A stretch of DNA of 62,810 nt from an uncultured Candidatus Poseidoniales archaeon. GTDB lineage: Archaea; Thermoplasmatota; Poseidoniia; Poseidoniales; Thalassarchaeaceae. The notes below the pieces were generated by a model that was not told the DNA's origin, made no database searches, and was given only the letters and a program-made list of their open reading frames with translations. The stretch lies in NCBI GenBank assembly GCA_964401115.1, contig CAYNXD010000073.1, positions 1 to 62,810 of the forward strand, written 5' to 3'. Both the position numbers and the translations under genes were made by a program. Below, one piece after another: positions 23,821 to 47,520 of this stretch. How positions within the stretch are numbered: position 1 is the first letter of the stretch; each line of letters begins with the position of its first letter.

Positions 23821-23925
23821 AATGGCGGTAGGGAGGGAGGGGGATATCATTTGCCCAATTTCGTGATTCACAAATTTTCCATGATGCCGAATAATTGACA
23901 AACCTTCATGTACTCCGTACATGGT

Positions 23926-26900: not shown

Positions 26901-29061
26901 AGATTGGAATGATGATTCCAATTTTGATGGGATGCCTAATGCATCAGAATTCATAGAATATCAAATGATGTCACCATCAAATATCGAACAGGCACGCGAC
27001 AATTATACGTTTTACTTTGATGACACAGATGCTCCTAACGGCGGTATTGTTGCGGGTTATGTCTCAGGTTCAGATGCTGCCGGCAACTCATTGATGGGTG
27101 GCGGTGGCCCAGGTATTGATGAGCAATTATTCACTTATCAACTGGCCCAAGATGGCGCTCCCAACATTATTGGAACTGGTGGCTTTTCGGACGGTCCCCA
27201 CTCATGGTTGCATCCAGCCACCCTCTATGAAATTAATATTCCATTTGATGAACCAAACGGTTTGTCTGATCTAGAGGATGTTAGATTCCAACTCGCTAGC
27301 AACTCAATCGTTGATCCTTTAGAAGTAGTTTGGAATGCCACAACAAATCGTTGTGTATCTTCAACTGAAGATAAACCCTGGATGCAAAACAACCTTTTGG
27401 TAAATTCATGCCACATTCATGCTAGGGATGGCGAGATAACCCCATTCACAACCGAGTTAGAATTGAGAATGGAATTCACATTGGATTGGGGGCTACCTAT
27501 TGAAAATGACCTCAGAAGGGCTCCGGCAATCACAGTTCGTGACCGTGCTGGATTGGAATCATGGCTTGAATTGCCCCAGTTACGCTGGCGTTTCTCCCCT
27601 AACTTGGCAATTTTTGGAGATAGCGTAATTTTGGAAGTAGAAGAAGGTTCCATTATTGATCAAAGCGCTTGGGTGAGGCCAGGGACTGGATTAAACATAT
27701 CTGGACAAGTGAAATTTGTCGAAACAGGACTAAGTCCCACTATACCGTTTGATGTTTCGATCCTTCTTGATGGAGAAAGATCGATAGTTTCAACTATCAA
27801 TGGTTATTTCATTGCTGAGTTGTCTGCACCTATGGATTCTAAGAGTCATGCGCTTTCATTTGAATTGAGTGGTTTGCCCCCTGAGGCAGTAGATGGCACA
27901 GACTCAACAGCAACTCTATATTGGATAGAGGTGGATAGTAATCAGCCAATTCCTGCAGGTGTTGTCGCCCCTAGAGAGGGTACGGAAATTACTCTTAATG
28001 AGCTATCATCAGTTGAAGTCGAATTACTTATTTCAGAACAAGAGAAATTGAATGTTGATAGTCTTCAATTGTTTTACAAAGTTTCAACTGTCAGCCAACC
28101 AAATGGTCCAGCTTTAATAGAAGGTTCAGAGCCGCTAATTGTTTCAGGCTCTCCGGTCGGGCAATCAATTTCAGTATCATCTGTAATTGATATAGAGAGC
28201 CGCCTTCCGAGCGATGCTTATCAAGACGAGTTACTTCTTTCTGTTTGGATTAAAGGTAGTGACATGGCAGGTAACGGCATAAGTTCATCTGCCCAGTTCA
28301 ATAGTGGTTCAACTCCTTTCGTTGTATGGAATATTGAGCATTTGGTTGCTGAAATTGAGATTACAAAATTGACATATTCAAGAAGCGGAGAACTTGATGT
28401 TGGACAGACAACGATGGTGACAATTGAATTGAGGAATATAGGGCATGCGCCGGGTTCTGCGAAATTATTGGCATATGAATTAGGAAGAGGGGGCGAAAAC
28501 CGCTCACTTACTCCTGTTCCAATTTCTGTAGTTGTGCCGATGGGTGAAAGAGTCACTTACGATATAGATTGGGTGCCAGAAAATAATGGCGAGAGGTGGG
28601 TAGTTGTTTCATTAGAAGATGGTTCATCAATGGAAGGGGATCACATCAATATTCGAGGGGACGGAGGTGATGATCCTCTTGGAAACGCCCTACAAGATGT
28701 TCCAATAACATGGCTGTTGGTAATTGCTGTTTTACTTCTAATTCTGACTCTTGTAGTTTCTCTTGCACTGAGGAGCGGCGGTTCTTCTGAGTCAGTATTG
28801 GATGATACTGACGATTGGGATGATGATGAGTGGGAGGAAGAAACGAAGTCTACCTATGCTAGCCCATCAGATGCAATGGCTAATTTGGCACCTTCTGAGC
28901 AACCACCCAATTTGGGTTATCAATATCAAAACCAACAGTTAGATCAAGCTCAGAACTACCAGCAAAACAACCAAAATCAATGGACTGAAGAACAAATCCA
29001 AGCATACCACCAACAGAATCAACAACAATATTATGACGCTGAAAAACATCAAAATCAGTAG
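23926..29061 (+). CDS. Giant (~1710 aa) surface protein: signal peptide, beta-rich ectodomains incl. CARDB-like module, C-terminal TM, acidic then Q/N-rich cytoplasmic tail
   Basis: N-terminal hydrophobic segment (VFLPIILAFLLAGPSL) and TM ITWLLVIAVLLLILTLVVSLAL near the C-terminus. The tail ends QYQNQQLDQAQNYQQNNQNQ...QQNQQQYY. Confidence 0.8.
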   Translation: MERSLSRVFLPIILAFLLAGPSLICFLQPPTELHEFGSVKETQLNVETTISITGSPNGSSDSLQLEVPEDEAVTGVDLSLEPHIHPVSDGISWSSASDWNMSGVINDGVDFNISSGMTLLPQGYDWDFESNSFGNGWTHSGNSNWIVQSGTRLSGQYSAQSGYISHNQQTSISVTISNMVGSGSFKYRTSTEGYYDRLLFCVDNTGCTRYGGYQAQWSGTTSGTYNFNVNSGSHTYTWKYYKDGSVNSGSDRVWIDDVEFNPTSGGSGDANWTSAQFGPGATGSLKTPVGQYGLMSIDASTSGGSSVTWDVLDGITKQPIYGFNDRSDLYADLGAIDWHDHPTIRLRLYMDQPSGASIIVHSVNLQGRYAQTFTRDPGWGGSINWDGDSYYGSGSILSPVFECLRPISRVKSTASYSSSGQLLVSADGGPFNSVSTSGGTHTFDSYANEIQFKWEGTSSNSDLRSVILDLDSGGLPVDPRIDVGLDGLIEWEISDSKIGPWGWQDRLSTGSLSSDHIFTTTSSKQVGIWLPTSGLDAMRFSVNPSSSGIQNLDISLNVDGTDVFSQSFGTFSNSRIVTLDTTSLSNLNNELSSSSSIIWPNSQKQVGDSYVQAVFTLDADYGSVNIGGISAVYHPIVNLSYQEFDEMVWSINDLMPSTNALGGIKKVPLTIQMTSSGSIKATIKDLTSTDELSSDSMSITNATITLAPSHQWIEVNTTHTAPLGTVSAIQLDMIGSLHQVRVLCRQDGSLSPLTSLGGQGMNEMEMLLWDVANGCNLEVNGTSVTSSLRFQLNSSWDDEDNLAMRVRLVLTDGRRSIPLVQEFGPGSILAVENDVEIISWEMYNDLGIPIPEDRLYLKSNTPITISVDLGFPNVDSFLAPRAGDVAVRVFENDQVVANSTALVNGSIDINLLAPLSSQPIEYRIDIFTLHGQENISQIALNRTYEIDSLAPIVIDQNIRKYDHLEHSLTQEIRVEIYDRPLLPDHLSLMLWRDWNDDSNFDGMPNASEFIEYQMMSPSNIEQARDNYTFYFDDTDAPNGGIVAGYVSGSDAAGNSLMGGGGPGIDEQLFTYQLAQDGAPNIIGTGGFSDGPHSWLHPATLYEINIPFDEPNGLSDLEDVRFQLASNSIVDPLEVVWNATTNRCVSSTEDKPWMQNNLLVNSCHIHARDGEITPFTTELELRMEFTLDWGLPIENDLRRAPAITVRDRAGLESWLELPQLRWRFSPNLAIFGDSVILEVEEGSIIDQSAWVRPGTGLNISGQVKFVETGLSPTIPFDVSILLDGERSIVSTINGYFIAELSAPMDSKSHALSFELSGLPPEAVDGTDSTATLYWIEVDSNQPIPAGVVAPREGTEITLNELSSVEVELLISEQEKLNVDSLQLFYKVSTVSQPNGPALIEGSEPLIVSGSPVGQSISVSSVIDIESRLPSDAYQDELLLSVWIKGSDMAGNGISSSAQFNSGSTPFVVWNIEHLVAEIEITKLTYSRSGELDVGQTTMVTIELRNIGHAPGSAKLLAYELGRGGENRSLTPVPISVVVPMGERVTYDIDWVPENNGERWVVVSLEDGSSMEGDHINIRGDGGDDPLGNALQDVPITWLLVIAVLLLILTLVVSLALRSGGSSESVLDDTDDWDDDEWEEETKSTYASPSDAMANLAPSEQPPNLGYQYQNQQLDQAQNYQQNNQNQWTEEQIQAYHQQNQQQYYDAEKHQNQ

Positions 29062-29448: not shown

Positions 29449-32136
29449 CTAATCAAACAATTCATCTACAGATGGTATTGTGCTAGGATCAGAAAAATCA
29501 TCTTGTGGAATTTCAGAATTTTGGATTAGTTCTCTTTCAACTTCCAGAGTTGATATTGATGATGGGTTTTCATCCCAGATAAGTTTAGGATTTCTAGTTC
29601 TGTTCATTCTAATTATTGAACCAATCGTTAGTCCAATTCCAATGAAAAACAGAACCGCTAGTAGGAACTCAACGGTCGAAGATAACTGCCATTGATTTGA
29701 TTCTATAGTTTCAATATTTTGTTCGATAATTTCATCATCCTTTTCACTTGTCAAATCACTATTATTTTCTTCAATTAAAGGTGGTTCAGGCCAAAATAGA
29801 TTCACTTTCTTCTCCATCCAAGACACATCATGTTCTATTCTCAATAACAATTCTAACTCACCTATAGAAGGCAATACTTCTATTTCATATTCCCCTGAGC
29901 TTTGGTTGTAAAATGTTTGATTACCTATAATGGTTGTAAATTTACAATCATTTTCGCAACTAGAATTAATCAATAATATAGCCGTATCATTATGATTCAT
30001 AGGCCAATGTAATACATCTACTGAAAGCGACATAGTGGGACATCCACGAATAGATCCACTGGTGTAAATACATTCATCCAAGGCATCATTTCGGCCATCT
30101 CCATCACTATCTCTCTGTGTTGGTGAGCAACCCAATTCGTCGGCTATTTCATCTAAAGGTGTGAAATCGCAAATGTCAATAGCATCTGAAACGCCATCAG
30201 AATCTGAATCAATCTGAGTCAAAGCACAACCATATTTGTCAACATCTAATCCATTAGGGGTGTCTGGGCAATTATCTAAATTGTCAGTTACTCCATCTAC
30301 ATCACTATCTAGTTGGCTGAGCGAGCATCCATCATTATTTACTAACTCTCCCGGAGTTGTATTTGGACACTGATCAACATCGTTCATGACACCATCCCAG
30401 TCATCATCGATTTGGTTTTGAGCACAGCCAATAAGATTGATTTCAACCCCAATTTCTGTATCAGGGCAAATATCAATGTCATCAGTAACACCATCGCCAT
30501 CCGTATCTTTCTGATATTCTGCACACCCTAAACTATCAACTTCTATGTTTGCTAAGGTATTAGGGCAAATATCAATGTCATCTGTAACTCCATCTTCATC
30601 AGTATCTTTCTGGTAGTCAGCGCATCCCGAATCATCGACAATAGATCCAGCATTAGTTCCAGGGCATTGGTCTAGAAGGTCATTCACCCCGTCATTATCA
30701 GTGTCTAAATCTGCTAATCGGCATCCAAAATGATTAACCAAATCTCCAACGGGGGTTTTAGGACAATTGTCAGCATGATTTCCAATCCCATCGCCATCAA
30801 TATCAGATTGACCAATTTGTTCTAATACATACATTCCAAGTAACTGATGTGTTGTTCCAGTGGGGTGAATTTTGTCAAAGAAAATGAATTCATCAACTGT
30901 TGGTTCAATATAGTCGTTTGAGTCACAAGAAAAGCCATCATGGTGACATGCAGCATGTGTGACGTTAGAAATCCCATAGAAGGAACCATTCCAATATATG
31001 GTCTCAAACATTTGAAAGACATCTATTACCTGTATGCTAATATTTAGGGCACTCTCTCTTGAAATCATTGCACTTTCTAGTTTTGAGTTGTAATCTTTCA
31101 ACCTATCGTGGAAAGCTTGTTTATTATTTTGGCTTTCACCGGAATATGAGGGGGTCTTCTCAAGGGGGGGCATATTGATGACCACGATGTCTTTTGCACC
31201 ATTTGAAAATACATCATTAACATGGTTAACAACGTAATCCACTACCTTTTGTGTATCAGTTTCACCACTATTTAGGAAGTTATTACCCCCTCCCCAAATC
31301 ATGACCTTTTCGTTTGGTGAAATCCAATAATTGTTGGTATAGTCCTCTATTTGTTTGCCCAAATTTGGGATAACGAAAAAGTTCATTCCTTCGCCTGCTT
31401 CAGCACCACCAAATGCCCTATTTGATCCAGTTCCACTACCTGCTCCTGGAGATATGTTAATTCCCATGCCTGCTGCGACATGTTCGTTCCACATTGGCCC
31501 TGTTGAAAATCTACCATTGTAGTATGGTGGCGATTCTGGAGTGCCATAAGCGGACTTTGAGTTACCCATATCGCTTAAAGAATCGCCAAATATCAATAAT
31601 TTTGATATGTTTGATTGTATGGTGGATTCAAAAATTATGAATTCCTTTTCTGCGTAATCAAGCAATTGATTTCTATTTTGATCCCACAGAACAAATCTTA
31701 GTGTGTATTCATAGCTCGTATTTATCCAAAATTCATATGCAGGAAATGAGAATGAAATAGTGCCATTAGTAGAATTAAATCCTTGGCCTGAACCGTTGAA
31801 TGTCAAAGTTCCATTATTTGCATATCCTGCATGAATAGTGTAGTCAAAACTGTAAAAGTTGCTAATACTACTATCGACTCCTGACCAAGTCAAATTCCAA
31901 TTAATCATCTCGCCAGTCTGAAAAGCAAACAAATTTGGCAGTGAATTATAATTATCCATATGAATTTCAATATTTTCATTGCCAGTTACCGATTTGCTAT
32001 TTCCTGCAGATGTAGTGATTGTTGAAATAGGTAGAATTACAATCATCATAATCATAATCATGGCTGATTTGCGGCTATTTGTAGGCATAACCCCACCATT
32101 CACATTCACCGAAGGTGAGATGTTATCATTTAACAT
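29449..32136 (-). CDS. Membrane-anchored extracellular SGNH/GDSL hydrolase with eight thrombospondin type-3-like Ca-binding repeats
   Basis: Signal anchor, then GDSL block LLIFGDSLSDMGNS, GGGNNF, and FFDKIHPT (DxxH). Then 8x D.D.DG..D..D.CP repeats, a beta-rich domain and a C-terminal TM. Confidence 0.8.
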   Translation of the reverse strand: MLNDNISPSVNVNGGVMPTNSRKSAMIMIMMIVILPISTITTSAGNSKSVTGNENIEIHMDNYNSLPNLFAFQTGEMINWNLTWSGVDSSISNFYSFDYTIHAGYANNGTLTFNGSGQGFNSTNGTISFSFPAYEFWINTSYEYTLRFVLWDQNRNQLLDYAEKEFIIFESTIQSNISKLLIFGDSLSDMGNSKSAYGTPESPPYYNGRFSTGPMWNEHVAAGMGINISPGAGSGTGSNRAFGGAEAGEGMNFFVIPNLGKQIEDYTNNYWISPNEKVMIWGGGNNFLNSGETDTQKVVDYVVNHVNDVFSNGAKDIVVINMPPLEKTPSYSGESQNNKQAFHDRLKDYNSKLESAMISRESALNISIQVIDVFQMFETIYWNGSFYGISNVTHAACHHDGFSCDSNDYIEPTVDEFIFFDKIHPTGTTHQLLGMYVLEQIGQSDIDGDGIGNHADNCPKTPVGDLVNHFGCRLADLDTDNDGVNDLLDQCPGTNAGSIVDDSGCADYQKDTDEDGVTDDIDICPNTLANIEVDSLGCAEYQKDTDGDGVTDDIDICPDTEIGVEINLIGCAQNQIDDDWDGVMNDVDQCPNTTPGELVNNDGCSLSQLDSDVDGVTDNLDNCPDTPNGLDVDKYGCALTQIDSDSDGVSDAIDICDFTPLDEIADELGCSPTQRDSDGDGRNDALDECIYTSGSIRGCPTMSLSVDVLHWPMNHNDTAILLINSSCENDCKFTTIIGNQTFYNQSSGEYEIEVLPSIGELELLLRIEHDVSWMEKKVNLFWPEPPLIEENNSDLTSEKDDEIIEQNIETIESNQWQLSSTVEFLLAVLFFIGIGLTIGSIIRMNRTRNPKLIWDENPSSISTLEVERELIQNSEIPQDDFSDPSTIPSVDELFD
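30037..30807 (-). repeat. In-frame tandem coding repeats (~96-99 nt period) encoding TSP type-3-like units
   Basis: Eight DxDxDGxxDxxDxCP units. The two central units (about 30462-30530 and 30561-30628) are near-identical at the DNA level. Confidence 0.8.
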
Positions 32137-32150
32137 ATCGATACTTTGAA

Positions 32151-35100
32151 TTATGATAATTCAGCATCCATTGCTTCTGAAATAATATGGGCATTATCTT
32201 CGTAATCTTGCCAATTTCCTTCACCCTTAATCCATGACTCTATTGTTCTATACGCAACTAATAATGATGGTAAAAGTATGGCACTCGTCAATAAAGCCAA
32301 GAAAATCAATAGCATCATCAAGATGAAGAAATTTCTCAGACCAGGTATTGCCAATGTTAATCCGGCAGCCAATCCCGCGCAGGTAGTCGCAGTGGTCTCA
32401 AAAATAGTTTGGCCAGTTCTAGCTACCGCTTTTACTATACCGCCGGGGGTCTCTTTTTCTTCTCTGATTCTGTCCATTACATGAATTGAATCGTCTACTC
32501 CTATTCCAAAAACAATTGTACTAATCATGGCGGTAAAGACATTAACATTAACATCACCACTTTTCATCAATAGCGGTTGCCATAGTACAACAACAGCGAC
32601 AGAAGTCATTGTGAAGAAGGCAAGTCTCGGGCTTCTGAATAACAATGTCATAGCAAATAGGAGAACAATCATCGTTGCAATTGTTGCATCAGATTGTGCA
32701 TTGTGTATGCCTTTGTTTATATCCAATGAAACTGGAAGTCCCCCAGTCAGTAAAGAATTCTTAACGCTATCAACTCCTAAAGCATTGCAATTAAGGGCAT
32801 CATCACATCCTCCTTCTGATAGGTATGTGTCTAATTGGTTTCTTAATTCACCGGCAAGTGCTAGATTTAGGTAAGGTTGATTGACATATACAAGTGTCTT
32901 TGTTTCTCCAAGATTTGCCATTGGTTCGTTCATTAACATTGAACGAATTTCGTAAGACAACGTATCAAATGCGATATTTATCATCACTTCCCTAGTTGTA
33001 ACTGAGGTGATTACAAAATCACCTGTTATGATACACTCTGGTTGAAATTGGTCTTCCCAACAAGGTGAATGCAATATTTCCCAAAGAGATCTGTCATACA
33101 TCTCTTGACCTGAAAGGTTAACATTGATATGAATGGCTTTTAGAATAGTTACCAAACTGATAGAACTAGTATTTTCAACATTGTTAATCTTCTCTTCTGT
33201 AATATATTCTATCGAATCTAACACTTCAATATGCCTAATAGGTGCAATATCATCTCTTACACCCCTATCTTCTGCGTCAATGATGAACATATTCGTTTGA
33301 CCACCTTCAAAAACTGTAGAATATTCTGCTAGAGTCTCATAAGATTCTAAATCAGGAGGTACTTCATTAGAGCCAGCTGTGATGTCTGCCCCTAATTCTT
33401 CTTCAAGGAACACAAAACCAATTGCACTTACGACCACAGCGAAAACAATTACTATCGCAGAACCCTTTACTGGCACTTCCCCAATTATTTTCCAAGCCTT
33501 CTCAGCTTTCTTTCCGCCAGTCTTTCTATAGCGAACTAGCCACCCCAATGCGGGCACCATTATTATGCTGAAAAAGAAGGTACAACTAATTCCCAGAACT
33601 AGCGTAATACCAACGGTCCTCATTGGTTGGATTGGTACAAGCCATGCCCAAGCCAGTACACTGAATCCAACAATTGTGGTAATTGCTGAGAGCAATATTG
33701 CATGTCCAGTGGTCATAATCGAATGGACCGTTGCATCAAGATAGAGTTGTTTATCCCATGGATCTAGCTCGGGAATTGGGTCGCCGTCCCTTTTTGATTG
33801 CCAAACAAGATTTGCATTCTCTTCAAGCATATTTTCTCGAGTTTCTTCTATTCTGTTAATTAGGTGTAATGCATAGTCAACTCCAAGCCCGATTAGAATT
33901 GGTCCAGCAGCAATAATCATCGGTGTCAGCATTATATCTAGAATTACAGTTGTGCCAAAGGTGGTCGCTAAACTCAGAACAATAGGTGTGCCGCAAATTA
34001 TCAGCACTTTCGGATTTCTGTGAAGAGCAATCATAGCAATACAAACAAAAGCAAGACTAATTGGTAACATATCTTCTAGTGCTAAATAAATTGCATCTGA
34101 AACATCATGCAATACTGGAGTAAGCCCTGTGACTGTAATGGCTTGTCTTGTTGGCAATTCCTCCCAACGTTCTTCATTCATACTAGAGAGTTTAATTCCC
34201 TCATAATCTCTGCCACAAAGCGGATTATCAAATTGATTGTAAATATCTGGATTTCTAGCACAGTCATCGATTACTTCCTTAAGATGTAGGATGAATGATT
34301 TATGATCTAGAATTTCTTCCCCATTAGGATCAAATCTTGTATCAACATCGGTTCCAGTCATATCAAATCTGATACCCATTACAACAACTGAAGTATCCCA
34401 TATTCCGTCACCATTAGTGTCAATAACTAGGCTGTCCAATGAACTACCAAGATTCTCAACAGTGTTGTTAATTCTGTCTTGGTTGTCGGGAATAACATAG
34501 GTGTCTCTTGGGTCTTGATTTGCTATATTACAGTCATCTCCAGTTTGAATGGGTAGGCCATATTTTTCAACTGAACAAGCAAAACGATTTGGTGCTGAGT
34601 TTGCTTCCTTAATCATTTGAGGGGCACTTAAAATCCAAACCACACCATCTTGAGTTCCTCGGTCATCTTTATTCCAATCTATTCCCCTTGCATAACGCCC
34701 CATATCTTTGTTATCATCATCACCTTCTAGGAAACTAATCTGCCTAAGAATATCAACATCTGTAATATTTTCACTACCTCTGCGTGCAGGGTCATCGATT
34801 GAATTGTCAGTATGAATGTATAGCAATACGATGTCAGTAGACCATTGTTCTCTCACGTCCAGTAATAATTCGGTAGAATCGGCTCCATCTGGGAGATAAA
34901 TCTCCACATCTCCGTTAATTTGTTGCCCAAAAGCCATGGCGTCTTTACCAACAAGAAAAGTGAGAAGAATCATTACCAATACTATTGGCCCCGGGGAGCG
35001 AAAAATTGTACGATAGAAACGAGTAGCTTGCCCTTTTACGAAAGAATGTGACCAACTACTTATCTCAGAAAACTTACTGCTTACTGAGAATGATATATCT

Positions 35101-35222
35101 TCGTATGTAGAGTAAAGTTGATTGTTCTTTATAATTTGTAAAATGTTTAAAATTGATTTACGAAAATCTGTACTTTCCGAATCCCGGACTTCATCGTTCG
35201 ACAACCCCGACTCATCCGCCAT
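32151..35222 (-). CDS. RND-superfamily exporter, COG1033/MMPL type (two 6-TM bundles, two large external loops)
   Basis: Duplicated GLGVDYALH / GIGVDDSIH motifs at the start of TM bundles, and 12 predicted TMs; 1023 aa. Confidence 0.8.
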   Translation of the reverse strand: MADESGLSNDEVRDSESTDFRKSILNILQIIKNNQLYSTYEDISFSVSSKFSEISSWSHSFVKGQATRFYRTIFRSPGPIVLVMILLTFLVGKDAMAFGQQINGDVEIYLPDGADSTELLLDVREQWSTDIVLLYIHTDNSIDDPARRGSENITDVDILRQISFLEGDDDNKDMGRYARGIDWNKDDRGTQDGVVWILSAPQMIKEANSAPNRFACSVEKYGLPIQTGDDCNIANQDPRDTYVIPDNQDRINNTVENLGSSLDSLVIDTNGDGIWDTSVVVMGIRFDMTGTDVDTRFDPNGEEILDHKSFILHLKEVIDDCARNPDIYNQFDNPLCGRDYEGIKLSSMNEERWEELPTRQAITVTGLTPVLHDVSDAIYLALEDMLPISLAFVCIAMIALHRNPKVLIICGTPIVLSLATTFGTTVILDIMLTPMIIAAGPILIGLGVDYALHLINRIEETRENMLEENANLVWQSKRDGDPIPELDPWDKQLYLDATVHSIMTTGHAILLSAITTIVGFSVLAWAWLVPIQPMRTVGITLVLGISCTFFFSIIMVPALGWLVRYRKTGGKKAEKAWKIIGEVPVKGSAIVIVFAVVVSAIGFVFLEEELGADITAGSNEVPPDLESYETLAEYSTVFEGGQTNMFIIDAEDRGVRDDIAPIRHIEVLDSIEYITEEKINNVENTSSISLVTILKAIHINVNLSGQEMYDRSLWEILHSPCWEDQFQPECIITGDFVITSVTTREVMINIAFDTLSYEIRSMLMNEPMANLGETKTLVYVNQPYLNLALAGELRNQLDTYLSEGGCDDALNCNALGVDSVKNSLLTGGLPVSLDINKGIHNAQSDATIATMIVLLFAMTLLFRSPRLAFFTMTSVAVVVLWQPLLMKSGDVNVNVFTAMISTIVFGIGVDDSIHVMDRIREEKETPGGIVKAVARTGQTIFETTATTCAGLAAGLTLAIPGLRNFFILMMLLIFLALLTSAILLPSLLVAYRTIESWIKGEGNWQDYEDNAHIISEAMDAELS

Positions 35223-36359: not shown

Positions 36360-36830
36360 TCAAAATGCGGAAATTGAGTTATCTGAGGCCATCCTGCGTC
36401 GCTGAAATTCCTCTACAAGCTCTTTCCTTAAGTCAGCCTCTCTTTCGCTCAATCTTCTATTTACGATTTGGGAGATATATGGGTCTAACTTCTCAAGCAT
36501 TTTTGCGACATCTAGTGCGTCATCACAATGAGGACAACATAAATCTTGATTGGTGTGAATTTCATTACTTTTTGATGATTCATATGTGTATAGTGATTGC
36601 ATATTTGAGTGATCTTTCTTATTCTTACGAACCTTTCTTTTGACACTCTTTTTTACTATGGTTTTTGAATCGGCTCTAGCCCTTAAACTTCCCAATCCTA
36701 ATCTTGGTTCGACACCTTCGCTCTTCATTCTTCTCTTTTTCTGAACTGGCTTTTCCTCAATGTCAAAATTTACACCTGAACACACGAATTGACGCATATC
36801 ATCTCCATCTGGTTTTGCATCAAATGCCAT
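36360..36830 (-). CDS. Hypothetical basic protein with CCPHC motif
   Basis: ATG ORF of 156 aa with a Lys/Arg-rich centre. No family recognised. Confidence 0.4.
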   Translation of the reverse strand: MAFDAKPDGDDMRQFVCSGVNFDIEEKPVQKKRRMKSEGVEPRLGLGSLRARADSKTIVKKSVKRKVRKNKKDHSNMQSLYTYESSKSNEIHTNQDLCCPHCDDALDVAKMLEKLDPYISQIVNRRLSEREADLRKELVEEFQRRRMASDNSISAF

Positions 36831-37060: not shown

Positions 37061-38008
37061 ATGCAATGCTTAGTGACTGGTGGTGCAGGCTTTGTTGGCT
37101 CCCATTTAGTAGATTTGTTACTCGATGCAGGTCATAGAGTCAGTATATATGATAATTTTTCATCTGGTAGGAGAGAATTTCTAAATCATCATGGTGATGA
37201 AGTATCTATTATTGAAGGCGATTTACTTGATTTAAATTCAGTTATCAAAGCTATGGAGGGGGTTGATATTGTCTATCACCTAGCAGCAAATCCTGACATT
37301 AGATTGGGTACTACTGTAACCGATACCGACCTAAAACAGGGCACCGTAGCAACTTACAATGTTCTAGAGGCTATGAGAATTAATGGAGTAAAGAAAATTG
37401 CTTTTTCCTCTTCATCTGTAGTTTATGGAGAAGCAGAAGTTATGCCAACACCTGAAGATTATGGTCCGCTATTCCCCATCTCATTGTATGGTGCTAGTAA
37501 GTTAGGATCAGAGGCACTCATAACTTCATGGGTTGGTACATTTGATTTACAGGCTTGGATTTTTAGATTTGCAAATATTGTAGGTGCTCGTGGAACTCAT
37601 GGTGTAATTTTTGATTTCATTCACAAACTTAGGGCCAATCCTAATCGATTAGAGGTTCTAGGAAATGGTCTTCAGGAGAAATCTTACATGGAAGTCAGGG
37701 ATTGTGCGGCTGCAATTATTCATCTAGTATCTAGTGCAGATGAGGCAATTAATTGCTATAATCTTGGTAGCGATGACACATGTAGTGTAAGGAGAATAGC
37801 AGAAATTGTTGTAGAAGAATCAGGATTGACGAATGTATCTATTGAGTATACTGGCGGTGATCGTGGTTGGGCGGGGGATGTCCCAAAGGCTATGCTAGAC
37901 CCAACAAGGATGAATGATGCTGGTTTTTCCACAAGATACAATTCTGAGGGTGCGGTCAGACACACTGCTCAGACTCTGATGGAGGAGATTGGAATTGATG
38001 ATGAATGA
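37061..38008 (+). CDS. NAD-dependent nucleotide-sugar epimerase/dehydratase (GalE-like SDR)
   Basis: VTGGAGFVGSHL, YGASK and extended SDR length. ATG 37061 lies inside the track ORF. Confidence 0.88.
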   Translation: MQCLVTGGAGFVGSHLVDLLLDAGHRVSIYDNFSSGRREFLNHHGDEVSIIEGDLLDLNSVIKAMEGVDIVYHLAANPDIRLGTTVTDTDLKQGTVATYNVLEAMRINGVKKIAFSSSSVVYGEAEVMPTPEDYGPLFPISLYGASKLGSEALITSWVGTFDLQAWIFRFANIVGARGTHGVIFDFIHKLRANPNRLEVLGNGLQEKSYMEVRDCAAAIIHLVSSADEAINCYNLGSDDTCSVRRIAEIVVEESGLTNVSIEYTGGDRGWAGDVPKAMLDPTRMNDAGFSTRYNSEGAVRHTAQTLMEEIGIDDE

Positions 38009-38690
38009 TGGAATTAGAAGGCGTAGTTTAGTAAATAATGAAGATGGCGATGCTAGGATAACTGCCGGTTTTGTTACTTCGGGATTGATTACTTTCATAA
38101 TCCTATCAGTTGTGCTTTTCACTGATGTGCCTCCGATAGGTCCTAATGAGGGGGAATTAGCACCTAATTTGGTAGGTGAGATACACATGTCAGGTTCTTC
38201 AACTTGGGATGATTTTGAATTATATGATGAAATTGACCATAGTTGGACGGTAGAATCTGATCCAGAGGCGAAGTGGTTTCTGATTCAGTTCATGGATACT
38301 GATTGTGGCCATTGTTGGGAATATTCCGATAAAATGTCCTTAATAGATGAAACATTTAGTTCCCAACTAACCATTATTAGTGTTGCAATAAGTTTAGATA
38401 TGCAAAATCATGATGCTGATAAGGATGAGATTGTTGCATTCCAAGACAAAATTTCCCTAGATGTCTGCAATGCGAAAAACACCGATTGTTCAACTAGGCC
38501 AGGAGAAATTCATAATTGGGGTTATTTGGATGACCTCAGTGGAAGTTATATGGATTCCTGGGGGGTTCAGGGGACTCCATTTTTCATTATCATTCAGCCC
38601 GATGGGGTAGTTGCTTGGAATCAAGCCCAGCATTCAGGGGAAGAGCCGGGCTCAGCACTAATGTCATTGTTACCTAGTTTGGAGGCCTAA
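37998..38690 (+). CDS. Membrane-anchored thioredoxin-fold thiol:disulfide oxidoreductase (CGHC)
   Basis: N-terminal TM, FMDTDCGHCWEY active-site block and GTPFFIIIQPDG (TlpA/ResA-like cis-Pro region). Confidence 0.7.
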   Translation: MMNDGIRRRSLVNNEDGDARITAGFVTSGLITFIILSVVLFTDVPPIGPNEGELAPNLVGEIHMSGSSTWDDFELYDEIDHSWTVESDPEAKWFLIQFMDTDCGHCWEYSDKMSLIDETFSSQLTIISVAISLDMQNHDADKDEIVAFQDKISLDVCNAKNTDCSTRPGEIHNWGYLDDLSGSYMDSWGVQGTPFFIIIQPDGVVAWNQAQHSGEEPGSALMSLLPSLEA

Positions 38691-38692
38691 AA

Positions 38693-39301
38693 ATGATTCT
38701 TTCTACCACAATTGTGACCATATTGGGTGCATCAGCTGTTGTATTCGCAGCTTTTTCAAAATCTGATTCTGTAAGGCCATTCTTCAAAACCTTGGGCATG
38801 CCTGATTTAATCTCTGGCCCGGTTAGCAAAAGAATGCTAGTGGGGGCCCTTTCATCTATTTTTGGTGGCATGATTGCAGCTGTTTGGATTTGGGCAATTC
38901 AAAGACAAGAAGTAGTTGGGCAGACTTCATTGTGCGCAGCAAGTAGCGGTTGTGCCAGCGCCCTTTCAGATCATACTATGAATTCAATCCCATTCACAAA
39001 TTTACAATATGGTTTATTCTTTGTAATTTGGTTCTGCGCGCTTTCATTCTTTGCATTAAGCATTCACTTGGATCATAGTTGGTCCAAGAATGGTGGCTTC
39101 CTTGGTTGGGGTAGAAATTTGTCTTTGATTGGTTCTATTATTGCTCTAATTATGTTAATCACTCACCTTGGTATGGTTGATGACTCACCAGCCATTTGTC
39201 TCCTTTGTTTAATCGTAGTAGCTGCTAATTTCCTAACCCTTTTCCAATTCCATAGGTTGCAAAATTTACATTCAGATGGTGCTTGGACTTCAAAGTCTTG
39301 A
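38693..39301 (+). CDS. VKOR (vitamin K epoxide reductase) family membrane protein
   Basis: Five TMs. Loop Cys pair C-AASSG-C (Cx5C) and CLLC at the start of the last TM. GGAGG lies 8 nt upstream, and the gene sits 2 nt after the Trx-fold gene. Confidence 0.6.
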   Translation: MILSTTIVTILGASAVVFAAFSKSDSVRPFFKTLGMPDLISGPVSKRMLVGALSSIFGGMIAAVWIWAIQRQEVVGQTSLCAASSGCASALSDHTMNSIPFTNLQYGLFFVIWFCALSFFALSIHLDHSWSKNGGFLGWGRNLSLIGSIIALIMLITHLGMVDDSPAICLLCLIVVAANFLTLFQFHRLQNLHSDGAWTSKS

Positions 39302-39334
39302 ATTGTTAGAGTAATATTGCGTATATTCTAAATT

Positions 39335-39907
39335 TCATTCTTCTTCATTATTAATGTCAGGCTGATTGGCGAAGATTAGTAAAGAGAATATGAAAATGAA
39401 ACCCATTAGTGCCATGAATGGGATACTCGCGAATCCATAGACATTGAGATATTGAACTGTGCATGATTCGAAGGCTGAACAAAACGGAGAATGTTGTTCG
39501 GGATTTAATTGTAATTGGTAGTGATATATCGAAATAAAAGCTCCAGCGAATGACATTGCTAATCCGTAAATTCGAATATTAAAATCTCCCCTAATACCCC
39601 CAAAAATCAGTAGAAAAGCAAGCGGATACATTATAATTCTCTGATACCAGCATAATTTACAAGGTATGAAATTGGCAATTTCCGAAAGATAGAGGCTAGC
39701 CATCATAGCAAATAAAGCTACAAATCCTGCTAGAAATAGCGCTCCTTGAGAATGTTCATTTCTTAATTCGGCCAATTTTTCTGCTATTGACTCATATTTC
39801 CTGGATGAGGCAACGAAAACCAAGATGACAATTCCAATTACTCCAGAAATCAGGGAAAGAATCCCAAACAGCGTCCCGGCCTCTTCAGGAGTCATTTTCC
39901 AGCACAT
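39335..39907 (-). CDS. dsbB: Disulfide bond formation protein, BdbC/DsbB family
   Basis: SLYLSEIANFIPCKLCWYQRIIMYP, GAFISIYHY and second Cys pair FCSAFESC closely resemble Bacillus BdbC. Has an extra N-terminal TM. Confidence 0.85.
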   Translation of the reverse strand: MCWKMTPEEAGTLFGILSLISGVIGIVILVFVASSRKYESIAEKLAELRNEHSQGALFLAGFVALFAMMASLYLSEIANFIPCKLCWYQRIIMYPLAFLLIFGGIRGDFNIRIYGLAMSFAGAFISIYHYQLQLNPEQHSPFCSAFESCTVQYLNVYGFASIPFMALMGFIFIFSLLIFANQPDINNEEE

Positions 39908-40015
39908 CCAGCGGGTAACCCCCGCTCATTGAATAACTGTGAGGCTACATGTTGATTTAATCACCACGCATGAGATTCCTTGTTCTTTCTCAATTAATGA
40001 CTCTGGCATCTCATT

Positions 40016-40300
40016 TTATGGTTGGTAAATACCTTGCAACTCGAAAAGCGCCTCATCTGTATCAATATCTATTGGAATCATTCGTGTGACGGTAACTTCC
40101 AACTTGAATTCCATCGGAAAATTTTCTCTTAATTCTGAATAAAGTCTAGTCTGCACCTCTTCCGCATTTCTTCCTCTCAATACTGTCATGCAGTGCAGTG
40201 TTTCTTTCTGTGATCTCTCCACAAAGTACTCTACGAGCCACTCTTTCATGGGGAGAGATGCACCATCATACCCCTCTGGTTGTCCGGATTGCCCTTCCAT
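40016..40300 (-). CDS. Hypothetical small soluble protein (94 aa)
   Basis: ATG ORF between the DsbB-like and CxxC genes. No motif recognised. Confidence 0.4.
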   Translation of the reverse strand: MEGQSGQPEGYDGASLPMKEWLVEYFVERSQKETLHCMTVLRGRNAEEVQTRLYSELRENFPMEFKLEVTVTRMIPIDIDTDEALFELQGIYQP

Positions 40301-40416
40301 GGTCCTATTAGTACAGTAATAGGGTATAAATCTCCCGAAAAAAGGAACTGATGCAGGAAGTAGAACAGTTTATCGGGGGTGTCGAACAAATATCACTATT
40401 TTGTATTAATCTGGAA

Positions 40417-41448
40417 TCATTCTTCTGATTCAGCATCATCAATCATTACATTGTCTGATTTTGAATCTTTCAACCGATTAAGTGTAGATGTTGCTATAAT
40501 TATCCCAATAATACCAACACTAGTGATGATGATTATTGATTCATTATCATAATCGACGTTTTTATTGGTAGATTCTAAATTTTGGGCTGCAATAATTTTG
40601 CCATCTGAATTTTCTGAAAATACCACCAGCCCCTTTTGATTCATCATTTCATAATCTTCCGGATTTGAACTTAAATTATAGTTGTAGGATATTTCAAATT
40701 TAGAAATATTTCCATTTCTTTCCCAATCAATAATTTCCCAAGCACCATCTGGCTCTGCGAAAATTATCGTTCCATTGTCATAATTGATCATTACTCCTGC
40801 TTTTGCGACATCATTGTGATGAGTTATTCCATTATATGCATCAGGATTGTCAATTTCAACATTATTTTCTTTTAGTATCAGGGTAATCTTATCAGAATTT
40901 CCTCCTGTAATCGTTGTAATGAACTCCAATCTATTCTGTGTATCGCCTGACAAATTACTAGCGCGGTTGAAGTATTCAACTTGTATAGTGTCTTCAGAAT
41001 TCCTCTGACCCGATGCTTTCAGATATGTTCTTTGCAACTGGTCATTAGTTACTGGCCCAGTTGCTTTATTGCCCCCATCCACCCAAATAGTTGGGAATTG
41101 AGCCTCCGTCGGATTTTCACCAAGATTCCACATTTGACGCGTTGAAAGTCGATTTCCAAGATAATCCAATCCATCATCAGGGTGGTATGCAATTCTTACA
41201 ACTTCCTGATACCTCTGATTTGTAAATTCTTCAATTGTAGTATCTGTTTCTGCACATATTTCGCACCAAATTGCTGTAATTTCCTGAATCACTACAAGAT
41301 TTGAACTGGAATCCGTTTTTATCCAATCACATGATAATCCCCGTTCACAATCTTCAGATTCTGCTTTAACGATAATTTGAGAGTGAAACGAGGTGATCAA
41401 TAACATCAAGACGACAAGCACCACTGGGTGATGGTTTGCCACTCGCAT
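40417..41448 (-). CDS. Extracytoplasmic thioredoxin-fold CxxC protein (DUF1223-like?) with N- and C-terminal TMs
   Basis: WCEIC after the signal anchor, followed by AYHPDDGLDY...FPTIWVDGG. C-terminal TM. ATG 41448 chosen so it does not overlap rlmE. Confidence 0.55.
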   Translation of the reverse strand: MRVANHHPVVLVVLMLLITSFHSQIIVKAESEDCERGLSCDWIKTDSSSNLVVIQEITAIWCEICAETDTTIEEFTNQRYQEVVRIAYHPDDGLDYLGNRLSTRQMWNLGENPTEAQFPTIWVDGGNKATGPVTNDQLQRTYLKASGQRNSEDTIQVEYFNRASNLSGDTQNRLEFITTITGGNSDKITLILKENNVEIDNPDAYNGITHHNDVAKAGVMINYDNGTIIFAEPDGAWEIIDWERNGNISKFEISYNYNLSSNPEDYEMMNQKGLVVFSENSDGKIIAAQNLESTNKNVDYDNESIIIITSVGIIGIIIATSTLNRLKDSKSDNVMIDDAESEE

Positions 41449-44907: not shown

Positions 44908-47520
44908 ATGGCTGGGCAGGGCATGAGTCAGGACGGTTTGAAAGACCGGACCCAGCAACTGACTACTGTATTTGAGAAAGGCTCTCCAGCGATTTTATTT
45001 GGTGCATTGGTGGTTACTCTATTTTTTGGCATGTTCCTATTTCCCTTCCCCTCCTTCCACACCGATCTGCAAGCATTTGCTCCCGACGGGCCAAATGATG
45101 ATGCAGAGGAAAGGATTGAATCAGCATTTGGAAAACAAAGGCAGCCACTTTTCATACATGTAGTAGATGATGATGGAGGAAATGTTCTCTCAATAGAGTC
45201 TCTACAACAGCAACAGCAAGATTTGGATTCAATTATAGAATGGTCTGACCAAAATGGCCACTTAATTTCAGAGTACATTGCGATTCCTGAAATCATTCAA
45301 AGGGGACTGGACGAGACATCTCCAGGGGCACAATTGAGTGAAGCAACCTCGTGGGCACAATTGCTGAATGATACAATTGATGAGGGTGAAACTTGTGTGG
45401 ATGGGGCTAGTGACGATGAATTGTTAATGCTAGCTAGTTTTGGAAGGGAGGCATTAGTAAACAAAGATTTACAATTTGAGCATACCACATGTGCCTGGCT
45501 CGATGAAAACCGCTCATCTGGTGATCCAACTCCTTCAGCATCAAGCAATCTTTGGATATTCTATATCCGTGCAGATTTAGATGATGTTAGTAGGCAAGAG
45601 ATGGTCAACCTACTACGTATTCAATTTGATGAAGTAGGTTCCCAAGGACCCCTAAAATATGGGTTGATTTCTGATGATGTACTTAGTTATGACATCAACG
45701 AAGGGACAACCCAAAATCTAGTTTGGTTAATTGCAGGTGCTCTCGCTGTTGTAGTGGTTATTCTAGCAATTGCATTCCGTTCGATTAGAGGGGTTGTTTT
45801 CCCTCTTGCAGCTTTGTCTATGGCGCTAGTTTGGACATACGGTTCATTAGCAGCATTAACTCCCACATTTTCTGTACTCCATGTCGCTGTCGCTCCCGTG
45901 GTTCTAGGATTAGGTATCGATTATTCTATTCACCTCCAGAGAGCCTACGAAAGGAAAAAATCACAGGGCGCCGAAACACCCAAGGCTTGGGCTTTTGCAA
46001 TAAACGATCTATACATTGCACTTACTCTTACAGTTATTACAACAGTTGCAGCATTCCTTTCTAATGTTGTATCTCCTTTGCCACCAGTTCGTGCCTTTGG
46101 AATGGCTTTAGCATTCGGCGTGATTTCAGCATTTATTACTTCAACAATTGTTGTAGGTGCCATGCATGTAATGATGGAGAGGGGTGGCCAAAAATTCAGA
46201 CCTGAAAGCCACTGGGAAGGCCTACAGAAGATTGCAAGAGAAGTGGTGATCACTCAAAGAAAAATTCAGGCATTTGCACTAATTTTGGTTGTAATGTTAA
46301 CTGTCGGTAGTGTGGTTCTGGCTGCTGCTAAATTAGAGACGGAATTCGATTTAACAGATTTCTTGGATGATGAAATGGATGTGATGGAGGTGCGTACAGA
46401 CATATATCAATCGTACGAAGCAACAGGGTGGCGCCCAATTTATGTTCTATCAGAGCCACTTGAAGGAGAGCATTCAATAGTTGATGATTCAGATTTTATT
46501 GAAGCAGATAACCATTTGAACAACAGGCTCGAACTTTCCCCAAGAGTGGTGATCCCCAGGGCAGTTGGTGATGGGGAACCAATGATTGAATCAGTACATA
46601 CGGTCCTAAGGGATGCAATAAAGGGTGACTCGGAATTTGGAATTAGAAATGGTATGAGGGTGGTTGGTAACGATATTGTTGTTGAAAATTACTCTACTGG
46701 TGATGCTGTGAAGGCATTACTAGAATTAAGCGAAAATGACTCGGTTGGTGATATTTTATCTGGCGCAACTTGGGCTCAAAGAGTAAATGGGGTGGCCTTT
46801 TTCTCATTTAGTCCCGAAAATGGTTGTGAATCAGGTTGCTTACAGTACTCTCGGATAGAAGTAATGGTTCAAGTTTCATCAAATAGTGAGTCAATAGAGG
46901 CAGTTGAAGGCCTACAGACTGCAGTAATACAATCTTCTGGAAAATATGGTATTCAAGCAGAAATGTATGTTTCAGGAGATGCAGTACAACTTAACCTCGT
47001 CCTGACAGGATTAACTACTTCCCAACTAGAATCTACTGCCATTAGTTTAGTAGTTTCTACTCTAGTTTTAGTTGCATTGACTAGGAGAATAGGGCCAGCA
47101 ATAATTGTCATCACACCCGTTGCGATTGCATCAATTTGGGTTGTTGGGGCGATGGCAATGCTGAATTTAAATTGGAATGTTCTAACTGTAATGGTAACTG
47201 CTCTAACAATTGGGCTTGGAATAGATTATTCTATTCACGTTTGGAGAAAATTTGATTCTTTGAAGCACAAATTTGAACCTTGGGAGGCAATAAAAGAGAT
47301 GCATGCTAGCACAGGTACAGCCCTTGTATTATCTGCAAGCACAACGATATGTGGGTTCCTTGTGCTGAGAATTTCACCTATGCCTGTAGTACAGGACTTT
47401 GGAATTGTAACATCTCTAACAGTATTCTTCTCATTGGCACTCGCACTAGGTTTGATGCCCATCCTTCTCACTGCAGATAGTATGATGGACAATGGTAGTG
47501 GTTTGTTTAATGATGAATAG
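44908..47520 (+). CDS. RND-superfamily exporter, COG1033/MMPL type (second copy)
   Basis: Duplicated GLGIDYSIH motifs, two 6-TM bundles and large external loops; 870 aa. Confidence 0.8.
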   Translation: MAGQGMSQDGLKDRTQQLTTVFEKGSPAILFGALVVTLFFGMFLFPFPSFHTDLQAFAPDGPNDDAEERIESAFGKQRQPLFIHVVDDDGGNVLSIESLQQQQQDLDSIIEWSDQNGHLISEYIAIPEIIQRGLDETSPGAQLSEATSWAQLLNDTIDEGETCVDGASDDELLMLASFGREALVNKDLQFEHTTCAWLDENRSSGDPTPSASSNLWIFYIRADLDDVSRQEMVNLLRIQFDEVGSQGPLKYGLISDDVLSYDINEGTTQNLVWLIAGALAVVVVILAIAFRSIRGVVFPLAALSMALVWTYGSLAALTPTFSVLHVAVAPVVLGLGIDYSIHLQRAYERKKSQGAETPKAWAFAINDLYIALTLTVITTVAAFLSNVVSPLPPVRAFGMALAFGVISAFITSTIVVGAMHVMMERGGQKFRPESHWEGLQKIAREVVITQRKIQAFALILVVMLTVGSVVLAAAKLETEFDLTDFLDDEMDVMEVRTDIYQSYEATGWRPIYVLSEPLEGEHSIVDDSDFIEADNHLNNRLELSPRVVIPRAVGDGEPMIESVHTVLRDAIKGDSEFGIRNGMRVVGNDIVVENYSTGDAVKALLELSENDSVGDILSGATWAQRVNGVAFFSFSPENGCESGCLQYSRIEVMVQVSSNSESIEAVEGLQTAVIQSSGKYGIQAEMYVSGDAVQLNLVLTGLTTSQLESTAISLVVSTLVLVALTRRIGPAIIVITPVAIASIWVVGAMAMLNLNWNVLTVMVTALTIGLGIDYSIHVWRKFDSLKHKFEPWEAIKEMHASTGTALVLSASTTICGFLVLRISPMPVVQDFGIVTSLTVFFSLALALGLMPILLTADSMMDNGSGLFNDE

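Follow-up and report, generated by a model that had tools for sequence, protein, structure and literature searches.

The stretch of DNA analysed here (the window; all 62,810 nucleotides of contig CAYNXD010000073.1, assembly GCA_964401115.1) comes from an archaeon of Marine Group II (MGII), family Thalassarchaeaceae, has a G+C content of 40% and carries, within positions 37998-41448, a group of genes that may encode a machinery for disulfide formation in exported proteins. The first gene (37998-38690, plus strand) encodes a thioredoxin (Trx)-fold protein of 230 residues with one N-terminal transmembrane segment (TM), the motif C103-G-H-C106 and a second cysteine pair, C157/C164, and its first 11 nucleotides are shared with the end of the upstream NAD-epimerase gene. 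Its TAA stop codon (38688-38690) is followed after 2 nucleotides by the ATG (38693) of a gene for a VKOR-like protein (38693-39301, plus strand; 202 residues), which has five hydrophobic spans and the cysteine motifs C81-AASSG-C87 and C169-L-L-C172. A GGAGG ribosome-binding motif (38681-38685, plus strand) lies in the 3'-terminal part of the Trx gene, 7 nucleotides before the VKOR ATG, and together with the 2-nucleotide gap supports translational coupling of the two genes.

The remaining genes are read from the minus strand and are co-directional, running from the gene for a WCxxC protein (41448->40417) through orf94 (40300->40016) to a gene for a BdbC-type DsbB (39907->39335). The DsbB (39335-39907) has five TMs, the sequence PCKLCWYQRIIMYP, the catalytic motif C83-K-L-C86 followed by Arg90, and a second cysteine pair, C143/C149; its gene converges on that of the VKOR-like protein across a gap of 33 nucleotides. 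The product of orf94 (40016-40300) is an acidic cytoplasmic protein of 94 residues, and a TTTATA element is located ~30 nucleotides upstream of its ATG on the minus strand. The WCxxC protein (40417-41448) combines a signal/anchor, the motif WC62-E-I-C65 and a C-terminal TM. An earlier note on this DNA, written from the sequence alone, had described these five open reading frames (ORFs), and all five are found where it placed them, with the cysteine motifs and the 2-nucleotide Trx/VKOR junction behind GGAGG that it reported. The convergence of DsbB on the plus-strand VKOR gene likewise holds, but the layout requires a correction in that orf94 and the WCxxC gene are also on the minus strand, in the same direction as DsbB.

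Family identity of the encoded proteins

The DsbB is the most readily assigned of the proteins. It passes the Pfam DsbB profile (PF02600) with 54.1 bits (E=3e-14; cut-off 22.1) and matches the BdbC-like NCBIfam profile PRK03113 with 121.4 bits (E=3e-35), narrowly under its 124-bit cut-off, the next-best NCBIfam match being PRK00611 with 70.5 bits. By these profile scores the product of 39335-39907 is unambiguously a member of the DsbB family and of BdbC type, as the earlier note had proposed. Archaeal and bacterial DsbB homologues share C83, C86, R90, C143 and C149 without exception, the catalytic segment having the motif PC.LCWYQRI.MYP, and a role for the Arg at the fourth position after the CXXC motif (CXXC+4) of DsbB has been described (PMC11208910). 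The ORF as listed begins with MCWKM, whereas all homologues begin at Met5 (MTPEEAG), and thus the true start is probably at 39895. We note that a 6-bp stem (AGCGGG/CCCGCT) directly precedes the listed ATG (39907). The ratio of nonsynonymous to synonymous substitution (dN/dS) of the DsbB gene is 0.08 between the window and the related locus L001 and 0.05 between the window and L004.

Among 837 DsbB homologues, the MGII proteins form a clade with 68-99% identity, which is followed by DsbBs of ~200 residues and five TMs with 39-52% identity. These non-MGII proteins share the extra N-terminal TM of the MGII DsbB, and the only two named near homologues outside MGII are from Acidimicrobiia and Actinomycetota. 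The closest non-MGII DsbB (P0042) lies in a bacterial context, with MurT/GatD, ZnuABC and Fur genes. Horizontal gain of the DsbB gene from marine Actinomycetota is, from these relationships, the most likely origin. The gene has a G+C content of 0.378 (0.33 at third codon positions), which is close to that of the neighbouring genes and gives no sign of recent transfer, so that the acquisition appears to be old. On the P0042 contig (JGI 3300056388), Fur and ZnuABC precede DsbB, and a gene for a 304-residue DUF929 protein follows it with a 4-nucleotide overlap; in the donor lineage this protein may act as the partner of DsbB, and no DUF929 match was seen for the MGII WCxxC protein.

The assignment of the VKOR-like protein requires an indirect route. 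The direct comparison with the Pfam VKOR profile (PF07884), by which the earlier note proposed to judge its VKOR assignment, yields 14.8 bits (E=0.032), which is below the 27.5-bit cut-off and, taken formally, would refute the assignment by the note's own standard, although the match covers positions 9-131 of the 134 in the profile. Its close relatives P0008 and P0009 reach 23.2 and 20.3 bits, respectively, and the MGII proteins P0010-P0013 and P0015, which are encoded at the same position, pass the profile with 41-62 bits. While a word-indexed search with the protein retrieves only seven close relatives, a HMMER search with a profile built from the alignment of these relatives (A1) finds 10 proteins in 1.84 billion sequences, and reaches the Pfam-passing MGII VKORs at E=1.3e-14 to 1.1e-5 in that search space (1.84e9 sequences). 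In addition, hhalign aligns A1 with the profile of canonical MGII VKORs (A5) at 99.4% probability (E=6.9e-22) over 183 columns. Membership of the VKOR family, as the earlier note had claimed, is therefore supported through the relatives at the same position and not by a direct Pfam match, and taken together the MGII VKORs are, at the profile level, a remote branch of that family.

Thirteen family members, the most distant of them 17% identical, all have cysteines C81, C87, C169 and C172, and P100, G107, F114, A178 and the C-terminal Trp (W198) are invariant across both the divergent MGII group, to which the window protein belongs, and the canonical one. The architecture of the divergent VKOR comprises an extra N-terminal TM (TM0) and then a four-TM core, with C169-L-L-C172 at the outer end of TM4 and Val176 at CXXC+4. 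All 13 members share a charge pattern in which three to six Lys/Arg residues follow TM0, none or one lies in the cysteine loop and the C-terminal tails are rich in Lys/Arg. By the positive-inside rule, the divergent VKOR is thus predicted to be N-out with both cysteine pairs extracytoplasmic, and the prediction is the same family-wide, as the earlier note had anticipated for the orientation of the VKOR cysteines. Within the loop, the residue five positions after the second cysteine, S92, is invariant in the DsbB-linked clade and is Gly or Ala in canonical MGII VKORs, and the sixth position is D, S or N; a conserved Ser/Thr after the second loop cysteine is a described VKOR feature (Goodstadt and Ponting 2004, per PMC4555120).

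Structural searches do not contribute to this assignment. A search of the PDB with the single sequence returns no match, and searches with the profiles A1, A2 and A5 return only spurious matches (EMC6, myosin-Va and KtrB) and a non-significant one to 4nv6 (E=0.12). The AlphaFold2 (AF2) model of the protein has a mean predicted local distance difference test score (pLDDT) of 73 and a predicted template modelling score (pTM) of 0.71, and a Foldseek search of the PDB with this model gives nothing at E<=0.001 and no VKOR in the top 50. The Foldseek output consists of designed helical bundles and unrelated membrane proteins and carries no weight for the VKOR identity in either direction.

The CGHC protein matches the Pfam profiles Thioredoxin_2, Thioredoxin and Thioredoxin_8 at E=1e-3 to 6e-3, under their cut-offs (best score 19.6 versus 27), and its orthologue at L014 passes AhpC-TSA with 27.0 versus 26 bits. 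The profile of the whole CGHC family (A7) matches Bacillus subtilis ResA at E=1.7e-8, together with 18 further chains of thioredoxin fold (TlpA/SCO/DsbA-like), which bears out the earlier note's assignment to this fold. With C103, C106 and the cis-Pro loop G192-T193-P194 invariant in the family, and with four Lys/Arg residues before the single N-terminal TM and an acidic ectodomain after it, an extracytoplasmic, membrane-anchored protein with a ResA/TlpA-like thioredoxin fold is supported. Its dN/dS is 0.08-0.15, and the active-site motif varies among lineages between CGHC, CHHC, CSHC, CPYC and CGYC. The earlier note had also remarked that the Trx partner is split from VKOR yet tightly coupled to it, and indeed this is so in every lineage, the two genes being separate yet abutting or overlapping in all related loci. 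The CGHC Trx protein and the VKOR are ancestral partners.

The WCxxC protein is predicted to be an exported type-I membrane protein whose TA-WCxxC motif is followed by a middle region rich in beta structure and by a TM anchor at the C-terminus. Ten orthologues all share T58, A59, W61, C62, C65, H89, P90, P119 and W122. No Pfam profile matches the window protein itself; its orthologues match Pfam Thioredoxin at E=0.006-0.02, the one at L009 giving the E=0.006 match and also a match to DUF1223 at E=0.15. In the PDB, the profile has 28 matches, all of them weak (best E=0.02) and all to thioredoxins or PDI aligned over the WCxxC motif, hhalign gives 37% probability over 41 columns against A7, and the AF2 model from eight sequences (pLDDT 30) is unusable. 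The signal/anchor and C-terminal TM that the earlier note described are upheld, and its thioredoxin fold is less firm: the weak matches make a thioredoxin-like N-terminal domain likely. We also observe that WCxxC orthologues are 28-44% identical where the epimerases are 77-85% identical, with a dN/dS of 0.20-0.37, and so evolve much faster than their neighbours; such rates would fit a protein exposed at the surface, with diversifying selection or relaxed constraint outside the N-terminal CxxC domain. The orf94 protein has no TM segment and no conserved cysteine, and no significant Pfam or NCBIfam match.

Cassette states and divergence of the VKOR

Across MGII contigs the gene order MMPL, GT2, epimerase, Trx, VKOR, (DsbB), orf94, WCxxC, FtsJ, ..., EF-1beta, TruD, RpoL-like, MMPL is kept, with varying content between epimerase and orf94, so that the synteny check suggested by the earlier note shows the wider region to be ordinary chromosome. 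We classified 76 loci by hidden Markov models and gene-context look-ups; the contigs are metagenomic, the counts include redundant contigs, and the states describe the epimerase-orf94 site only. In the empty state, found at L063, L066 and L067, the orf94 stop codon abuts that of the epimerase gene. The most frequent state, at 51 loci, comprises Trx and a canonical VKOR with His at CXXC+4, without DsbB, and includes a variant with an additional anchored protein of 180-183 residues that carries a Cys/His motif (L014/15 and L018; L017 ends within this protein). The state of the window, present at 17 loci, comprises Trx, a divergent VKOR with Val or Leu at CXXC+4, and DsbB. The association is without exception: the VKOR is of the divergent type at 17/17 loci where a DsbB gene lies between VKOR and orf94, and a DsbB gene is present there at 0/51 loci with a canonical VKOR. 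The orientation of DsbB differs, the gene being on the VKOR strand at L012/13, L019/20 and L031, and opposite to VKOR in the window and at L001, L002, L004, L021/22, L024, L026, L027, L029, L030 and L033. Inverted repeats around DsbB, sought as an explanation for the two orientations, yielded only short matches of chance quality.

The boundaries of the exchanged segment are sharp. Locus L028, which has a canonical VKOR and no DsbB, has flanks closely similar to those of the DsbB-bearing L021, with protein identities of 93% for the epimerase, 90% for orf94, 87% for FtsJ and 67% for WCxxC; the cassette genes of the same two loci are 47% (Trx) and 31% (VKOR) identical, and those of L028 and L006 are 55% and 60% identical. 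L029 lies on the contig of L022, a locus with the L021-type arrangement; its DNA is collinear with that of L028 at 79-83% identity as far as the orf94 stop and then from the first ~22 Trx codons, with the cassette unaligned. Similarly, homology between the window and L028 stops at 38006 and restarts at 40017, and L035, a relative of the empty-site contigs, has a cleanly delimited 1.3-kb Trx-VKOR block that these contigs lack. Such sharp breakpoints, together with the empty and alternative states, indicate that Trx-VKOR(-DsbB) is a cassette that is gained, lost and replaced via recombination in the flanks. In the window this variable cassette spans about 38007-40016 and comprises most of Trx, the divergent VKOR, DsbB and a spacer of ~110 nucleotides. 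WCxxC and orf94 lie outside the cassette and are present in every state, the empty site included. The term 'island' used in the earlier note thus suits the Trx-VKOR-DsbB block, which is variable, but not orf94 and the WCxxC gene, which belong to the conserved flank.

Several further features are seen at individual sites. The empty-site contigs (L063:3474-4701, L066 and L067) are of high G+C content (0.59), have the orf94 stop 1 nucleotide from the epimerase stop, lack Trx and VKOR and retain WCxxC. The gene for the 180-183-residue protein (L014:5969-6520 and L018:1103-1645, both plus strand; also L015 and L073-L075) is found in one MGII lineage, occupies the DsbB slot and overlaps VKOR by 4 nucleotides in L014. 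Its product is an exported protein with conserved cysteines and a His-rich motif, MHVIHTHD or MHVTHTHG, and might serve the cassette as an accessory in metal binding or redox chemistry. We considered whether this gene downstream of the canonical VKOR (L014, L018) is a cryptic DsbB, which is ruled out, the protein having a single anchor, a Cys/His motif and no Pfam match. L012 carries an extra ORF of 97 residues between DsbB and orf94 (L012:7343-7636, minus strand) that is absent from the otherwise near-identical L013, and in both L012 and L013 an N6-methylase/Eco57I-type restriction-modification gene downstream of FtsJ replaces the EF-1beta/TruD genes of the window.

The VKOR that accompanies DsbB has diverged strongly. 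In Tajima relative-rate tests with four outgroups, the divergent VKOR has 28-57 unique substitutions versus 12-21 in the canonical VKOR of L006, that is, 2-4 times as many (p 1e-7 to 0.07), although the four ingroup taxa share one stem and the tests are therefore not independent; GT2, epimerase, Trx, orf94 and WCxxC are symmetric in the same tests. Canonical MGII VKORs have 27 invariant positions, and 15 of these are altered in the divergent VKOR, including the TM3 Glu, which is replaced by His or Gln, and the CXXC+4 His, which is replaced by Val or Leu. Val or Leu occupies CXXC+4 in all DsbB-linked VKORs and His does so in all canonical MGII VKORs. This position matters experimentally for de novo disulfide formation, as Arg in DsbB and as Tyr/Trp in VKOR; within VKORs it is Tyr in human, Trp in Mycobacterium tuberculosis and often Ala, and so is not strictly conserved (PMC11208910). 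At usable synonymous divergence, the dN/dS of the divergent VKOR is 0.07 (window versus L001) and 0.13 (L002 versus L003), similar to that of Trx, which indicates strong purifying selection and a gene that is not decaying. As a property of the gene tree, the long branch of the divergent VKOR still holds. A working model of simple vertical descent, in which the acceleration followed the gain of DsbB, was set aside because L028 has sister-like flanks around the other cassette type.

Large MMPL/RND-type transporters of 12 TMs at 32151-35222 (minus strand) and 44908-47520 (plus strand) bracket the region, near GT2 and NAD-epimerase genes, which suggests a neighbourhood concerned with the cell envelope or glycosylation; regions of this kind often vary among marine microbes. 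Between the GT2 and epimerase genes, an ORF of 156 residues (36360-36830, minus strand) encodes a Lys/Arg-rich protein with a CCPHC motif, no TM and no family match; it is confined to closer relatives (L001-L005, 60-79% identity), other small ORFs being present elsewhere. At 29449-32136 (minus strand) lies the gene for an exported protein of 895 residues in which Pfam recognises a GDSL-lipase domain and TSP type-3 repeats (68.6 and 86.3 bits, respectively) and which has 20 cysteines, a plausible nearby substrate of the disulfide machinery, and the adjoining gene (23908-29061) encodes an exported protein of 1717 residues with eight cysteines and no Pfam match.

Proposed pathway and alternative explanations

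The account that we favour, with moderate confidence, is that the locus encodes a disulfide machinery for exported proteins, in which an ancestral Trx-VKOR pair has been supplemented by a DsbB within an exchangeable cassette, and in which both oxidases are active and face outward. The conserved catalytic residues and the selective constraint on both membrane enzymes suggest that each is probably functional. In this pathway, the anchored CGHC Trx protein would oxidise the cysteines of exported substrates. By analogy with VKOR-Trx fusions and DsbA/VKOR pairs, VKOR would then re-oxidise Trx, with electrons passing from C81/C87 to C169/C172 and on to a membrane quinone. The DsbB route would run from C143/C149 through C83/C86 to quinone, with R90 stabilising the quinone, and Trx could be regenerated by VKOR and/or DsbB. 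The BdbC-type DsbB, likely from marine Actinomycetota, would have been inserted directly 3' of VKOR in some lineages and would provide a second, or by now the main, path to quinone, while the altered VKOR would stay dedicated to its co-translated Trx. The data themselves establish the homologies, the motifs, the predicted topology, the selective constraint, the gene-order states and the breakpoints of recombination, and from them we infer the direction of redox flow, the partner of each enzyme, the quinone itself and the order of DsbB gain and VKOR divergence.

Several observations weigh against this account, in addition to the sub-threshold Pfam score and the unproductive PDB and Foldseek searches for the VKOR-like protein described above. 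ResA and TlpA, structurally the best relatives of the Trx protein, act as reductants in the systems to which they belong, and the oxidising direction proposed for it derives from its pairing with VKOR and from a CxHC-type motif that is itself variable. Loss of a hydrogen-bonding residue at CXXC+4 could impair the quinone chemistry of the divergent VKOR, although a non-polar residue (Ala) is common at this position among VKORs (PMC11208910). Finally, since the contigs are metagenomic, genomes with a 'canonical' or 'empty' site may possibly hold a DsbB or VKOR elsewhere.

The divergence of the VKOR could alternatively reflect a change of function, in which DsbB takes over disulfide generation and the divergent VKOR quits quinone reduction, its four cysteines being put to a new use, for example as a Trx electron relay (in isomerisation or reduction) or for one dedicated substrate. 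Such a change would account for the long branch specific to VKOR, for the loss of the TM3 Glu and of the His at CXXC+4, a position that matters in quinone chemistry (PMC11208910), and for the strong purifying selection that persists despite these losses; it would also suit a ResA/TlpA-like Trx partner, as that group includes reductive enzymes. The divergent VKOR has nevertheless retained the four cysteines, the P100/G107 loop motif and the architecture, non-polar residues are frequent at CXXC+4 of VKORs in general, and an electron donor of CcdA/DsbD type, for which no aimed search was made, is not seen in the cassette. Moreover, no member of the VKOR family is known to act as a reductant, which also counts against the proposal, and we regard it as rather unlikely. 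We are similarly doubtful of a wider scenario in which the epimerase-orf94 site is a recombination hot-spot that exchanges disulfide-oxidase cassettes, a DsbB of probably bacterial origin having taken over quinone-linked disulfide generation and the divergent VKOR having been re-tasked to a new role that is still under selection, of which the loss of the CXXC+4 His and the TM3 Glu would be the mark. Were this scenario true, it would represent a natural case in which DsbB and VKOR are functionally non-equivalent.

The earlier note had read the locus as two parallel relays, each with its own partner, such that VKOR would re-oxidise the CGHC Trx protein and DsbB would re-oxidise the WCxxC protein. 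The layout of the window is suggestive of this, as DsbB is co-directional with WCxxC-orf94 here and at L001, L004, L021 and others, with Trx-VKOR coupled separately. However, DsbB is co-directional with VKOR, and even overlaps it, at L012/13, L019/20 and L031, so that its orientation varies by lineage, and both WCxxC and Trx-VKOR occur at loci without DsbB. Indeed, WCxxC is kept even where there is no cassette at all, and would therefore be independent of this DsbB, which seems to have been added late. Support for a thioredoxin fold in the WCxxC protein is, in addition, weak. Two dedicated relays are thus unlikely, and this part of the earlier note is not supported. That the product of 38693-39301 is no VKOR homologue and its cysteine pattern a coincidence, as the Pfam E=0.032 and the lack of a significant VKOR match by PDB sequence or Foldseek might suggest, is effectively refuted by the Pfam-passing VKORs in the identical slot of the same gene neighbourhood, by the HMMER values (E=1e-14 to 1e-5 in 1.84e9 sequences) and hhalign probability (99.4%), and by the TM0, four cysteines, P100, G107 and C-terminal Trp common to both groups.

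Comparison with known systems

DsbB and VKOR are usually seen as interchangeable, and here they stand side by side in a small archaeal cassette. Each kind of protein is already known, as are split DsbA-like/VKOR pairs and VKOR-Trx fusions (PMC4555120) and the co-occurrence of DsbB and VKOR in bacteria, and the significance of the locus is consequently moderate. In the open-access literature we found nothing on archaeal DsbB or on the disulfide machinery of Marine Group II. Three features seem to be new: an archaeal resident VKOR with an acquired DsbB as its neighbour, the strict association of DsbB with one diverged VKOR subtype, and the cassette polymorphism at a fixed site. The cassettes offer a comparative series of canonical VKOR, divergent VKOR and DsbB, each with the same partner family, and add a probable bacteria-to-archaea transfer of envelope redox machinery in archaea that are very abundant in the surface ocean and whose many secreted and surface proteins presumably rely on such machinery.

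The closest parallels to the Trx-VKOR pair are the bacterial VKOR and Trx systems, namely the Synechococcus fusion (3KP9/4NV5-6) and the M. tuberculosis VKOR with its separate DsbA-like protein. As in MGII, these have a four-helix core, a loop cysteine pair and a CXXC motif at the outer end of TM4, with outward-facing cysteine pairs (predicted in MGII), an exported partner of Trx fold and a presumed flow from partner to loop cysteines, CXXC and quinone. In contrast to the C-terminal fusion of Synechococcus, the MGII partner is encoded by a separate, coupled upstream gene and has its own N-terminal anchor, and in the MGII VKOR an extra TM precedes the core, with no TM5 following it. The window protein further differs from bacterial VKORs in its sub-threshold Pfam score, and its CXXC+4 residue is Val instead of the His of canonical MGII VKORs. 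An Asn equivalent to N80 of human VKOR is apparently absent from both MGII types, as judged by manual motif alignment. The partner itself shares an anchored Trx fold, a CxxC motif and a cis-Pro loop with B. subtilis ResA and the TlpA family, the best solved relatives of the CGHC protein, but these are reductants fed by CcdA/DsbD, whereas the MGII protein is paired with VKOR and has a variable CxxC dipeptide and an extra conserved cysteine pair.

Archaeal VKORs are known, with 491 in NCBI, and the Aeropyrum pernix paralogues have been tested in E. coli (Hibender et al. 2017, in PMC13486548); the literature establishes that archaeal VKORs are able to make disulfides and that their topology sets the compartment. 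The A. pernix proteins are crenarchaeal paralogues, one of which faces inward, whereas the euryarchaeal lineage of the window has a single VKOR, predicted to face outward, and an acquired DsbB. This DsbB resembles B. subtilis BdbC, of the BdbC/BdbD pair, in its CxxC-x3-R motif and second loop cysteine pair, and differs from it in the extra N-terminal TM, shared with the ~200-residue actinobacterial-type proteins, in the absence of an adjoining BdbD/DsbA-type gene and in having VKOR as a neighbour. The earlier note's statement that genomes carry either DsbB or VKOR describes a tendency only, since a survey of 20,704 bacterial species found that a significant number hold several classes of disulfide-generating enzyme (10.64898/2026.03.05.709764). 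The window resembles such bacteria in having DsbB and VKOR in one genome, but here the two genes are adjacent within one archaeal cassette, and the DsbB, seemingly acquired, tracks a divergent VKOR subtype at a site that also exists in alternative states.

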